Virus record (IMG/VR): IMGVR_UViG_3300035425_000025
Span: 1 to 64,000 of that record
DNA: 64,000 bases
Strand: one strand, 5' to 3'
DNA from: a virus
Taxonomy: Duplodnaviria > Caudoviricetes
The position numbers were made by a program, and so were the translations under genes. The notes under the pieces are model-generated. The model made no database searches. It was not told the DNA's origin and saw only the letters and a program-made list of their open reading frames with translations. This document shows, one piece after another, positions 29,012 through 35,205 of this stretch (position 1 is the first letter of the stretch; each line of letters starts with the position of its first letter).

Positions 29012-29272
29012 ATGAAATTATATGAATGCATAGTAGATGATGGGCAAAACGTATTCAAGACCTTGACAGCTTCTAAAAGTAAAAAAGAACTTCTTTCAGT
29101 TTATGGCGGTAATGGTTCTTTTGAAAAAATTACCGATGTAACAAAAGATTATTTTACCAATGAATCCTCTGATAAATTAGTTTCTGATTTACAAAAATGT
29201 GGTTGGGGTAAAGGTGAAGTTGAATTAATAAGGGCATTATTAGAAGAACATATAGACAAATTAAATAAATAA
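29012..29272 (+). CDS. First early hypothetical protein
   Basis: 86 aa, AGGCAGGT RBS downstream of the promoter. Confidence 0.75.
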   Translation: MKLYECIVDDGQNVFKTLTASKSKKELLSVYGGNGSFEKITDVTKDYFTNESSDKLVSDLQKCGWGKGEVELIRALLEEHIDKLNK

Positions 29273-29332
29273 ATCCCCTGAAGAGTCTTTGAAAATTAAG
29301 ACGAAACTACCCAAAACAAGGGTAGTCGGGAT
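29273..29332 (+). ncRNA. Hammerhead ribozyme, type I
   Basis: ATCCC-CTGAAGA-GTCTT(loop)AAGAC-GAAA-CTACCC(loop)GGGTAG-TC-GGGAT: complete core and three stems; predicted GUC cleavage after 29327. Confidence 0.9.
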
Positions 29333-31746: not shown

Positions 31747-31775
31747 TTGACAATGCACTGTTAATACACTATAAT
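31747..31775 (+). promoter_or_regulatory. Perfect sigma-A promoter with AGTGC/GCACT operator
   Basis: TTGACA-17-TATAAT. Confidence 0.8.
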
Positions 31776-31955: not shown

Positions 31956-32109
31956 ATGTGGAAGCTGTCAACGACCGCAAATCATAGAACAGCTCCCACG
32001 CAACCGCCAAACGCTGCAAACGTAGGCTTTAAACCTACTCACGATTGGACAATCTTATTATATCAGTTCTTTCAAGATTATTCAATCAAAAATCCACTTT
32101 ACAGATTGA

Positions 32110-32345
32110 ACCTTGACAATTTCATAGGTAATGCGTAAAGCATCAAGATCACTTGCCTAAAAGAAGTGGTTAAGGTAGTTGCAGACTTTCCGAAACAACC
32201 GGAGAAGCAACAGAGCATTAACAGGCTGCTGAGACTCCCTATAATGGAAAGAAGTGGGAATAACTGTTAAAGTCTCTACAAGAAAATGAGACTAAATAAA
32301 CACATATTGATATTAAGGGCTTGCATCCGTCAAAAGTTGCAAGCT
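32110..32345 (+). ncRNA. Candidate structured RNA or leader
   Basis: Run of about 7 hairpins, e.g. TTAACAG/CTGTTAA, AGTCTC/GAGACT, GCTTGCA/TGCAAGC. Confidence 0.4.
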
Positions 32346-32380
32346 CATTTCAAGAAAATGGAGAAAGTGAGGATGATAGT

Positions 32381-32674
32381 ATGGCGAGAAAATCAGCGTG
32401 GGATAAATTCTTTGATGATACAGAAGACATCCAATGTATTTCTTGTTTGGATGCTTATGTATTGAAATATTTCATTGATAATTGCTGTGTACAAATAGAC
32501 AGACATTCAAGTGATAAGGATAGCAAATTTACGCTTAGTATAAGAGGATATGACGAAGAAAATAAGAAAGATTTATATGAAAGTGATTTCAGTAGGGAAT
32601 GGAAAGAAAGGAATGTTTACAATCAGGCATTAGTTAAGAAGTTTGTAAGCGGATATTTCTTTTATTTGCAATAA
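32381..32674 (+). CDS. Hypothetical protein
   Basis: GAGGA RBS before MARKSAWDKFF. Confidence 0.7.
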   Translation: MARKSAWDKFFDDTEDIQCISCLDAYVLKYFIDNCCVQIDRHSSDKDSKFTLSIRGYDEENKKDLYESDFSREWKERNVYNQALVKKFVSGYFFYLQ

Positions 32675-32702
32675 AACAATTATTTGAAAGGAGAATAAAA
32701 AA

Positions 32703-32996
32703 ATGACTAAAAAAGAAGTAAAACAATTATTGCCATTTAACACGATAACAAAATGTGAAAAAGAATACCACAGGCTTGTGAAAGAAAGTCTCAATTTTGG
32801 TGGATTTGATGCGAAATCATATGAGACACTTATATCTTGTGTAATATGCATATATTCAAGTTTGAAAAATGACAGTGTGGCACAACTAGAAAAGTTCTTT
32901 GCCGGTAAGGAAAGCAGAAGAAAAAGTTATTATGCTTGTTTATTTGCAAGTGAAGAAGACAAAAGAAAAGCGATAAAAGAATTATTATTTGTTTAG
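32703..32996 (+). CDS. Hypothetical protein
   Basis: 97 aa, AAAGGAG RBS. Confidence 0.7.
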   Translation: MTKKEVKQLLPFNTITKCEKEYHRLVKESLNFGGFDAKSYETLISCVICIYSSLKNDSVAQLEKFFAGKESRRKSYYACLFASEEDKRKAIKELLFV

Positions 32997-33055
32997 GGAA
33001 TAACGCAATGAAAGGGATATTTAAAGGCAGATGGAAAATAAAACCGTCTGCCTTA

Positions 33056-33130
33056 CTTGTTATAATGCAGCCTGAAAGCCTGATCAACTTTCAGACAGTC
33101 CACAGTCTGTAAAATGCAGATGGTAACAAG
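33056..33130 (+). ncRNA. Twister ribozyme, type P1
   Basis: P1 CTTGTTA/TAACAAG, T^AA, P2 TGC/GCA, AGC, P3, P4 ACAG/CTGT with loop TCCACAGT; T1 pseudoknot CA/TG; one conserved loop A is a C. Confidence 0.75.
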
Positions 33131-33185
33131 AAAATAATAGAGAAATAGTTATTGCTACATAGACAATCAAAGAAAGGTTAAAACG

Positions 33186-33725
33186 GTGGAAATTATGTTA
33201 AGAATCTATTTAACAAACTTAGGCAAGTACAATGAAGGTCAGTTAATCGGTGAATGGGTAGAATTTCCATGTACAGATGATGAACTGGAAGAAGCTAAAG
33301 AAAGAATCGGGATCAGCGATGAACCAGACGAAAACGGAAACTATTATGAAGAGTGGTTTATTACAGATTATGAAACCGACATTCACGGCTTGACAGTTGG
33401 CGAGTATGACAATTTAGACGAATTAAACGAACTTGCGGAAACTTTAGACGATCTGGACGAGTACGAGCGAGAAATTGTAGAAGCTATGATTTCTGAAGGT
33501 TATTCTTTAGAAGACGCAATCAACAAAAAAGAAGATTGTATGATTTATTATAACTGTGAAGATATGGAAGACGTGGCAAGAGAATATGTAGAGGAAACAG
33601 GACTTCTTGATAGTATTCCAGAAAATCTGCAAAGTTATTTTGATTTTGAGGCATATGGGCGCGATATGAGTTTTGAAGGACATTTTGTATTTACTAATAA
33701 AGGAAATTGTGTGCAGATTTTATGA
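33186..33725 (+). CDS. ardA: ArdA antirestriction protein
   Basis: IYLTNLGKYNEG.L.GEW, EEWFITDYE, YFDFEAYGRD; highly acidic. Confidence 0.92.
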   Translation: MEIMLRIYLTNLGKYNEGQLIGEWVEFPCTDDELEEAKERIGISDEPDENGNYYEEWFITDYETDIHGLTVGEYDNLDELNELAETLDDLDEYEREIVEAMISEGYSLEDAINKKEDCMIYYNCEDMEDVAREYVEETGLLDSIPENLQSYFDFEAYGRDMSFEGHFVFTNKGNCVQIL

Positions 33726-33765
33726 TCTGTACACAATGAAATTGTAATTTGAAGGGAGAAAATGC

Positions 33766-33969
33766 ATGAACACAATACCACGATACATGAAAGAATATGC
33801 CAATGCACAGCGGAAAAGTTATGTAGATAATGAATTGATGCAGAAAAAGTATAAAGATGCAGCCGTGGAAATTATAGAGCGTATTTTGAAAAATACAGAA
33901 CATGGATTGATTACAATTAATGAAGGAATGAAAGCGTTATGTGATCCAATTGATGGAATAGTTTTGTAG
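33766..33969 (+). CDS. Hypothetical protein
   Basis: 67 aa, GGGAG RBS. Confidence 0.7.
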   Translation: MNTIPRYMKEYANAQRKSYVDNELMQKKYKDAAVEIIERILKNTEHGLITINEGMKALCDPIDGIVL

Positions 33970-34057
33970 GCAGTTAGAACGGCTATGGAGAATATAAGGC
34001 TATAGCCGTTTTATAGTGCTTATAAAGGCAAATAAAGTATTGTAAGGAGTAAAAGCA

Positions 34058-34483
34058 ATGAATGATATTAGGCTTAGTTATAAAATGGCTCTAAAACTTG
34101 AAATGTATATGGAGAAAGAGATTGAAGAAATTGCTCAGGATTTTCAGAGTCTATCATGGAATTACAATGAAACATACGAGTATAAAAAAGATATGAAGGC
34201 AGGTAAAAGATCTTTTCATACTGACTATGGAATTGATAAAACATCTTATGATGACAGAGTAAAAAATTTAAGAATCCGTCAATATGAATTGTATCTTGAA
34301 TTGGAAAATTTAATAAAAGATTGTAAAGAACAGAATGACGGAAAGCCATATCTTCCATATAGTATGCATTTAAAAAGGCAATTAATTTGTATCAATCCAT
34401 CTTATGATAATGTAGCTGAGGAATTAAGAAGATTAAAAGGAACGGAGGAAAATCATGATGATAACATACAGTGGTGGATCTGA
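34058..34483 (+). CDS. Hypothetical protein
   Basis: 141 aa, AAGGAG RBS. Confidence 0.7.
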   Translation: MNDIRLSYKMALKLEMYMEKEIEEIAQDFQSLSWNYNETYEYKKDMKAGKRSFHTDYGIDKTSYDDRVKNLRIRQYELYLELENLIKDCKEQNDGKPYLPYSMHLKRQLICINPSYDNVAEELRRLKGTEENHDDNIQWWI

Positions 34484-34631
34484 AGCAATCGAAACAGTTT
34501 ACACATATGAAGAATGGCTTAAAGAATACAACCGCCAAGAAACGAAACGGAGAATTAGACAGAGGACAGAACATCTATATTATATAAAACAACGTCTATC
34601 TGGCACTATCATGGCAGCGATTGGAGGTTGA
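34455..34631 (+). CDS. 58-aa hypothetical protein
   Basis: GGAGG RBS, MMITYSGGSEAIET...; below the ORF-track cutoff. Confidence 0.55.
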   Translation: MMITYSGGSEAIETVYTYEEWLKEYNRQETKRRIRQRTEHLYYIKQRLSGTIMAAIGG

Positions 34632-34634
34632 AGA

Positions 34635-34823
34635 ATGGAAAATATTATAAACAAAATGTTAGAGCGTATCAATTTTAAAATCAGATATGCACAGGAAAAT
34701 TTTACAGAGTGGAACGCTGCACACGATAGACGGATGGCAGAAATTGACGGTATGATTGATATGTTATCAATAGTTACTGGTAAAGAATATGTTATCACAG
34801 AAAATGGACTGGAAGAAAGATGA
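34635..34823 (+). CDS. Hypothetical protein
   Basis: 62 aa, GGAGGT RBS. Confidence 0.7.
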   Translation: MENIINKMLERINFKIRYAQENFTEWNAAHDRRMAEIDGMIDMLSIVTGKEYVITENGLEER

Positions 34824-34826
34824 AAA

Positions 34827-35024
34827 TTGAGGTTAAAAATGAAAAAATACGGATTCAAAAAATTAAATAATGGATGGCGTTTTAAAATTGGTGGGACTTC
34901 TGGGGAACCGTTTGGAATTACACTAAGATATTTTAATAAATGTGGCTTCCGGCTTCTTATAAATTTCAATACGGATTTTCTTATAAATCTTTTTGGATTC
35001 AATCAAAAAATCATTGGCGTTTAA
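34827..35024 (+). CDS. Hypothetical protein
   Basis: GAGGT RBS before the internal ATG (MKKYGFK). Confidence 0.55.
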   Translation: MRLKMKKYGFKKLNNGWRFKIGGTSGEPFGITLRYFNKCGFRLLINFNTDFLINLFGFNQKIIGV

Positions 35025-35205
35025 ATCGCATACAAGCCCATTTAAAGCCTTAAATCAGTGCATATACAAATATGTATGTGCGTTGCATTAAGTCCTTAAA
35101 TAAGGCAAATAAACAGTATAGAAAGAGAAGTATAGAGCAAGCGACAAGTGGAAATGTTGCTTGCTTTTATTATTTGTAAAATCAAATAGAATGGAGGAAA
35201 ATTTT

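Follow-up and report, generated by a model that had tools for sequence, protein, structure and literature searches.

A predicted type-P1 twister ribozyme upstream of phage ardA and its sibling copies before other genes

The ardA leader and its twister fold

The window, by which we mean the whole 64,000-nucleotide stretch analyzed here, covers positions 1 to 64,000 of a 74-kb IMG/VR virus record (IMGVR_UViG_3300035425_000025) whose completeness is estimated at ~40%. Its minus strand encodes the large terminase subunit and an integrase, and from ~28.9 kb onward small genes run rightward. The product of the plus-strand gene at 33195..33725 is beyond doubt the antirestriction DNA-mimic protein ArdA (176 aa): it matches Pfam PF07275 with 147.6 bits (cut-off 27; E 5.8e-43), PHROG 2059 and, over residues 2-170, the structure of ORF18 ArdA (PDB 2W82; E 1.4e-37). 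Although the listed open reading frame begins at GTG 33186, ATG 33195 is the likelier start, because an SD sequence (GGTGG, 33185-33189) precedes it and relatives are called as 176-aa proteins. Upstream, a 97-aa ORF ends at the stop at 32996, and the genes before the twister are co-directional with the gene after it. The interval from 32996 to ardA contains, in order, a palindrome, a hairpin, a 75-nt twister element and a 64-nt A-rich stretch. Phage GenBank records gave no blastn match to positions 32000-35000 of the window.

A promoter scan found no site between 32996 and ardA. The nearest same-strand matches upstream of the gene lie at 32218-32245 (11/12) and 31747-31775 (12/12), and the next terminator-like site 3' of ardA in the terminator scan is at 35134. 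Because the promoter scan is empty between 32996 and the gene, ardA is most likely an internal cistron, and we infer that it is transcribed as part of a unit starting at the promoter match near 32218-32245.

The sequence and its homologs identify 33056..33130, on the plus strand, as encoding a genuine type-P1 twister ribozyme with P3, for which self-cleavage is predicted from family membership. The Rfam model RF03160 aligns end to end with 33059-33127 in cmscan, scoring 48.4 bits with zero non-canonical pairs; the E-value is 4.9e-10 for a local 301-nt stretch and 1e-7 when the whole window is searched on both strands with all 4227 families. This score falls below the RF03160 gathering score of 67.2 bits. 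At gathering thresholds Rfam reports only tRNAs in the window, and the twister is seen with E-value reporting. The minimum-free-energy (MFE) fold of 33050-33140 contains the same four helices as the Rfam model (z -2.57). Thus, the full P1-type layout claimed in the preliminary description lies where it had been placed, and the matches of the twister to RF03160 and of ArdA to its profile and structure confirm a type-P1 twister in the ardA leader. The 55-nt spacing given there holds when counted to GTG 33186; from the likelier ATG 33195, the distance from the end of P1 is 64 nt.

P1 pairs CTTGTTA (33056-33062) with TAACAAG (33124-33130), P2 pairs UGCA (33066-33069) with 33115-33118, P3 joins 33072-33078 with 33088-33094, and P4 pairs ACAG (33095-33098) with CUGU (33107-33110). 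The L4 loop, UCCACAGU at 33099..33106, supplies the T1 strand (33100-33102), the T2 strand (33105-33106) and a non-consensus C33103. In the T1 pseudoknot, CCA at 33100-33102 pairs with UGG at 33121-33123 (C33100-G33123, C33101-G33122 and A33102-U33121), the UGG lying within the L1 3' strand, GAUGG (33119..33123), where U33121 makes the compensatory pair with A33102. T2, which had been described as GC with GT, is indeed kept through a G33070.U33106 wobble and a C33071-G33105 pair between the GC after P2 and L4. Cleavage is predicted between U33063 and A33064, and U33063, A33064 and A33065 are invariant in all copies of the element that we found. The predicted general acid is A33064; the general base is G33119, followed by A33120. 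G33119, A33120 and A33104 (position 6 of L4) are present and invariant, and G33105 is present too. When window residues are mapped onto Osa-1-4 numbering (PMC5113685), all four essential twister residues (G13, G30, A46 and G48) are kept.

The window copy thus shares with the type-P1 class, attributed to Roth et al. 2014 in the citing text of PMC5113685 and PMC6765202, its P1, P2 and P4 helices, the optional P3, the U/AA cut site, both pseudoknots, the general-acid A, the general-base G, an 8-nt L4 and a siting near phage genes in Clostridia-type genomes. It departs from consensus at three points: the third T1 pair is A-U rather than C-G, the next L4 base is C rather than A, and the first T2 pair is G.U rather than G-C. 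Accordingly, L4 reads UCCACAGU against the RF03160 consensus UCCCAAGC, and the L1 3' strand reads GAUGG against GAGGG. The A-to-C loop change that had been noticed earlier is real and corresponds to C33103 at L4 position 5; we infer that the A.A pair of the class corresponds here to this base and A33120 of L1. By analogy with published variants, all three departures belong to classes reported as tolerated. Twisters tolerate a Watson-Crick swap in T1 and a C31U-type wobble (PMC5113685), and in an assay of ~2600 natural candidates, of which ~94% cleaved, pseudoknot wobbles were tolerated and activity was not significantly affected when the trans A.A pair of the longer pseudoknot carried an A-to-C change (PMC11662667). 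Imperfections in both pseudoknots at once were poorly tolerated in the same work (PMC11662667), and the window copy joins its T2 wobble with a C.A in T1. We consider the window copy quite probably active and expect a still higher likelihood of cleavage for its consensus-type siblings. The homologs described below carry C instead of A at L4 position 5 in seven of 16 distinct sequences. As this 'CCACAG' form of L4 occurs in several flank types and its partner position is always U, the distribution argues for a maintained form of the loop rather than a decaying one.

Two further parts of the intergenic region flank the twister. Immediately upstream, a stable hairpin at 33024..33054 consists of an 11-bp stem (AAGGCAGAUGG at 33024-33034 with CCGUCUGCCUU at 33044-33054) and a 9-nt loop; its centroid energy is -17.6 kcal/mol (z -3.55), and it occurs once within the window. 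It had been called terminator-like. The hairpin itself stands, but as an intrinsic terminator it was rejected, as it has no proper U-tract and does not appear in the terminator-scan list. An 8-nt segment of its 5' arm (33026-33033, GCAGATGG) is identical to the P2-3'/T1 strand of the twister at 33116-33123, and the hairpin 3' arm could therefore pair with the 3' strand of the ribozyme in an alternative, inactive fold; in GAGGG-type siblings this match is broken. Downstream, the A-rich leader with its SD (33131..33194) has no significant fold, and because its z score is only 0.16 we discarded the notion that another structured RNA follows the twister.

Copies of the twister before different genes

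A near-exact twister pattern found no matches in viral contigs, and a looser, degenerate pattern of the twister core was therefore used. Including five ardA loci and 17 loci found by this pattern search, the lineage has 22 further copies, with 16 distinct sequences. The pattern-found copies lie in four viral contigs (three of them 129-162 kb), a 190-kb scaffold of Roseburia sp. 1XD42-69 and 12 metagenome contigs. Siblings score 48-68 bits with Rfam, with covariance-model E-values down to 1e-17; one (L032) reaches 67.9 bits, above the RF03160 gathering score, and the rest fall at 48-64 bits.

Pairing was counted in an alignment (A1) of the 16 distinct sequences against the full structure, including both pseudoknots. 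In A1, 97% of paired cells can pair, compared with 28-45% after the 3' partners are slid by 1-3 columns, and the value for each helix is 95-100%. The outermost P1 pair is C-G in ten sequences, U-A in one and U.G in one; the first T2 pair is G-C in 14 of 16, G.U (the window type) in one and A.C in one. The T1 covariation proposed in the preliminary description is borne out. Sibling T1 strands are CCC/GGG or CCA/UGG, and the third T1 pair (column pair 49-69) is A-U in seven of the 16 sequences, C-G in seven, C.U in two (the type of L004 and L043) and A.G in none. This is the sole two-sided core change in A1, and it sits exactly on a predicted tertiary pair. However, the sequences are closely related, with a mean column identity of 93%, and recombine, and the covariation may therefore reflect few independent events, perhaps only one or two.

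ArdA relatives number in the thousands. We compared the DNA around seven ArdA clusters with 72-95% identity to the window protein, together with one locus (L002, 67%) from a scan of viral contigs. The twister lies upstream of ardA in five of these loci (L003-L006 and L009), whose ArdA proteins are 89-95% identical to that of the window and whose twisters score 48-62.5 bits. The gene upstream is of four kinds, and in L005 homology starts exactly at P1. No twister was found at ardA loci whose ArdA is at most 84% identical, as judged by Rfam for L002 and eight representatives among L010-L029 and by pattern only for the others. A back-translation scan of viral contigs for ArdA returned a single relative, the L002 gene, which has its own promoter and no twister. 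A linkage between the ribozyme and ardA, which the preliminary description had suggested surveying, therefore holds in the sub-lineage with ArdA at least 89% identical; it was not found at 84% or below, and the same twister precedes at least eight other kinds of gene.

At none of the 17 pattern-found loci is the twister clearly followed by ardA. The gene in that position encodes a 557-aa protein in six loci, a 131-aa protein in two and a 133-aa protein in three, one of the last with an inserted 62-aa ORF; other loci have a HicA-like protein, a 48-aa protein, an HTH-like protein, a small Cys-rich ORF or a possibly ArdA-like ORF with an in-frame stop. Searches of Pfam, PHROG and the protein atlas found no function for the 557-, 131- and 133-aa proteins. 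Overall, at least eight kinds of gene follow the twister, which in most cases brings its A-rich leader, SD and ATG along, and at least eight upstream contexts lie before it. In the possibly ArdA-like case (L043:559-639, minus strand), the ORF after the cassette starts with MTIKIYLSNL, resembling the ArdA N-terminus, and meets an in-frame TAA after 23 codons; contig coverage is 1.9x, and the stop may be an error or mark a pseudogene.

The boundaries of homology are sharp. On the 5' side, P1 is the exact starting point of homology in roughly half of the loci; in 11 of the 23 loci homology begins instead at a TGAAA-N6-TTTAA palindrome, read from the window sequence as TGAAA-GGGATA-TTTAA at 33009..33024, which is where the conserved module opens in hairpin-type contexts. 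The hairpin corresponding to 33024-33054 is likewise kept in 11 of the 23. On the 3' side, the shared sequence stops either at the ATG or immediately past P1. Most loci keep the leader, SD and ATG, such that the same leader runs up to the start codon of different genes and divergence starts just past it. Three sequence variants in four loci (L031, L036/L038 and L040) instead diverge right after P1 and continue with a consensus TTGAAA-16-TATAAT promoter. Because this promoter is directly 3' of the twister, the ribozyme cannot cap the 5' end of the main downstream mRNA in these loci, and such variants are more readily explained by a ribozyme that acts at the end of the upstream unit than by a 5' cap.

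The 918-aa protein of the window was not found in four large records that carry sibling twisters, and we therefore claim a shared cassette only, not close overall kinship of the phages. The Roseburia sp. 1XD42-69 scaffold (L034, NZ_RAZG01000001.1) comes from a cultured isolate and carries the twister cassette before a 131-aa gene; its cassette and compared flanks are identical in a viral contig (L030) of IMG/VR class 'provirus'. The sequences thus point to Roseburia or other Lachnospiraceae as hosts for this cassette. One 129-kb viral contig carries two plus-strand twisters 1.3 kb apart (L031:797-865 and 2093-2161; 48.1 and 59.8 bits), the first of which is directly followed by a consensus promoter and then the HicA-like ORF.

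Possible roles of the cassette

We consider it rather likely that the twister is part of a portable intergenic cassette, comprising palindrome, hairpin, twister, A-rich leader, SD and ATG, which is carried by large Lachnospiraceae-associated phages and processes or insulates the downstream cistron. Such a cassette would sit between small early genes of these phages. The twister would fold co-transcriptionally and, as its family membership suggests, cut itself at U33063/A33064, just before ardA in the polycistronic RNA. The upstream fragment would then end in the 11-bp hairpin, capping its 3' end, and a 2',3'-cyclic phosphate, and the ardA message would start with a 5'-OH, after which would come the compact double-pseudoknot fold of P2, P3 and P4 and then the SD-bearing leader, constant and unstructured. 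Such an arrangement would probably be of use as insulation, in the sense that the 5' end and the context of translation initiation would be the same whatever gene lies upstream, which would explain why the cassette is retained while genes on both sides are exchanged. Among possible functions, gene-independent processing or insulation would best fit a retained cassette with changing neighbors.

The same cleavage could, by contrast, shut down the message that follows it. If RNase J were to degrade the 5'-OH product in the 5'-to-3' direction, as it does once glmS has been cleaved, the twister would serve as a read-through insulator or decay trigger, and the outcome would be limited read-through expression of the next gene, or its uncoupling from upstream transcription, with no boost. 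In Bacillus subtilis, the 5'-OH end of cleaved glmS is a substrate for RNase J1 and destabilizes the mRNA (PMC3328962, in a passage citing Collins 2007), and the Roseburia genome with a sibling twister encodes RNase J (637.7 bits). Both observations run contrary to the earlier proposal that a 5'-OH end shields ardA mRNA from RNase J. A role in decay would also suit the hairpin-bearing loci (11 of 23) and the variants in which a consensus promoter directly follows the twister, leaving it as the 3' end of the preceding unit. Most copies, however, are fused to a conserved leader, SD and ATG without an intervening promoter, and destroying each downstream message would silence the gene; moreover, only two unpaired nucleotides would precede the double-pseudoknot fold after the cut, which might hinder a 5' exonuclease. 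We judge this role unlikely. We also doubt that the twister is dedicated to ardA and, within an anti-defense ribozyme program, stabilizes the ardA mRNA through a 5'-OH end to allow an early burst of anti-restriction protein. The ribozyme does lie only 64 nt before the ardA ATG and stays with ardA in five relatives that have three further upstream genes, and hammerheads occur beside ardA in Agrobacterium and Legionella, where the authors suggest that ribozyme action matters for this gene (PMC3088659). Yet no twister was found at ardA loci at or below 84% identity or at L002, the same twister and leader precede the 557-, 131- and 133-aa proteins and others that lack anti-defense annotation, and the premise of a protective 5'-OH conflicts with the RNase J1 precedent as reported in the glmS passage of PMC3328962. 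The preliminary view of the twister as an ardA-specific device is thus too narrow, given the spread of the cassette over at least eight other kinds of gene and the confinement of the linkage to one sub-lineage.

A reading at the level of DNA appears very improbable to us. An extended -10-like sequence, TGTTATAAT (33058..33066, plus strand), lies inside P1 and the cleavage site and could act as a promoter after a terminator-like hairpin, in the manner of the PeSLs of T4-type phages, in which case the twister-like fold would be incidental or a relic. The TGnTATAAT motif is invariant in 23 of 23 copies, even where upstream DNA differs; recombination junctions flank the twister element; and hairpin-plus-promoter cassettes that mediate gene shuffling are known (PMC2839356, PMC4122927). 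However, the twister itself dictates this invariance through P1, UAA and P2. No -35 element matches, and 33058-33066 is absent from the promoter-scan calls. A transcript starting near 33073 would lack P1, the cut site and the 5' strand of P2, and yet the full fold is conserved, with compensation in T1 and P1. Covariance-model E-values down to 1e-17, and the three variants that have a separate consensus promoter right after the twister, further argue against a promoter as the conserved function. PeSLs resemble the cassette in being short intergenic stem-loop elements that bound exchangeable accessory genes at recombination junctions (PMC2839356, PMC4122927), but they consist of an early promoter and a terminator without a ribozyme, whereas the conserved core here is a predicted catalytic-RNA fold with no -35.

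Processing or insulation by a portable cassette also has a more ambitious form, which we put forward tentatively: the palindrome-hairpin-twister-leader-SD-ATG unit may be a natural mobile, self-processing expression cassette, the phage equivalent of RiboJ. If so, large Lachnospiraceae phages recombine the cassette before interchangeable early genes, ardA among them, and each newly acquired gene is freed from its polycistron, its translation then starting from a uniform 5' end capped by the ribozyme. In RiboJ, as in this model, a ribozyme in the 5' UTR removes variable upstream RNA to give a constant 5' end and leader (PMC6206723). RiboJ, however, is an engineered hammerhead-plus-hairpin part tested in Escherichia coli, whereas it is only modularity that suggests insulation by the natural cassette.

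The closest natural precedent is the set of prophage hammerheads of Perreault et al. 2011 (PMC3088659). These clustered ribozymes flank single prophage genes and cleave in vitro and in vivo; they flank ardA in Agrobacterium and precede it in Legionella. In both systems a self-cleaving ribozyme lies immediately upstream of ardA among co-directional small phage genes, and the proposal is the same, namely that long phage transcripts are cut into gene-length mRNAs. The systems differ in ribozyme class (hammerhead versus twister) and in setting (Agrobacterium and Legionella versus a Lachnospiraceae-type gut phage), and the twister here, unlike the hammerheads, travels between genes together with a conserved leader, SD and ATG to which it is joined. 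The twister class, its siting near phage genes, its co-occurrence with hammerheads and the idea of polycistron processing have also been published (PMC6765202). Thus, of the earlier suggestion that ribozymes program the processing of anti-defense mRNA, the processing of phage polycistrons is an idea already in print (PMC3088659, PMC6765202), and the searches of Pfam, PHROG and the protein atlas speak neither for nor against the view that all twister-led genes serve anti-defense. The class itself and, for hammerheads, the adjacency of a ribozyme to ardA (2011, PMC3088659) are known already; new here are the documented modularity of this twister lineage and its natural T1 series.

More broadly, the purpose of bacterial and phage twisters is an open question (PMC6765202), and this lineage constitutes a natural experiment in which a ribozyme of almost constant sequence, whether or not a fixed leader accompanies it, precedes at least eight different genes. 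It includes three variants with a promoter after the twister, and C-G, C.U and A-U states at a single pseudoknot pair. With these natural variants, insulation, stabilization and a decay trigger can be compared directly using few reporter constructs.

Other ribozymes and RNAs near the twister and ardA

A candidate type I hammerhead occupies 29273..29332 on the plus strand, beginning immediately 3' of the stop codon that ends the first early gene (29012-29272). Its core (CUGAAGA / GAAA / GUC) is complete and three stems are present, as read from the sequence, but its Rfam scores are below threshold: 20.2 bits for RF00163 (gathering 34; E 0.001 per genome) and 25.9 bits for RF03152 (gathering 56.3). 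A RAGATH-1-hammerhead search of five phage records returned only this sub-threshold site in the window. The preliminary description had placed hammerhead and twister in one early operon. The two are 3.7 kb apart, and because two 12/12 promoter matches, one 11/12 match and two terminator-like hairpins intervene, a single operon is not supported; the candidate hammerhead probably belongs to a different transcription unit from the twister.

Other RNA classes occur in related neighborhoods. A Pistol ribozyme lies at L022:2066-2135 on the plus strand (RF02679; 64.6 bits against a gathering score of 34.5), and an ardA of 74% identity without a twister follows it at a distance of ~870 nt. A third ribozyme class is thus present in relatives of the ardA neighborhood. 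A search of five phage records for Pistol ribozymes gave no match. In addition, Skipping-rope RNA (RF02924; gathering 36.7) is found at L030:4709-4787 (79.6 bits) and L040:1911-1991 (77.7 bits), in both cases on the minus strand of the contig, which is the strand of the sibling twisters, and ~0.8 kb upstream of them.
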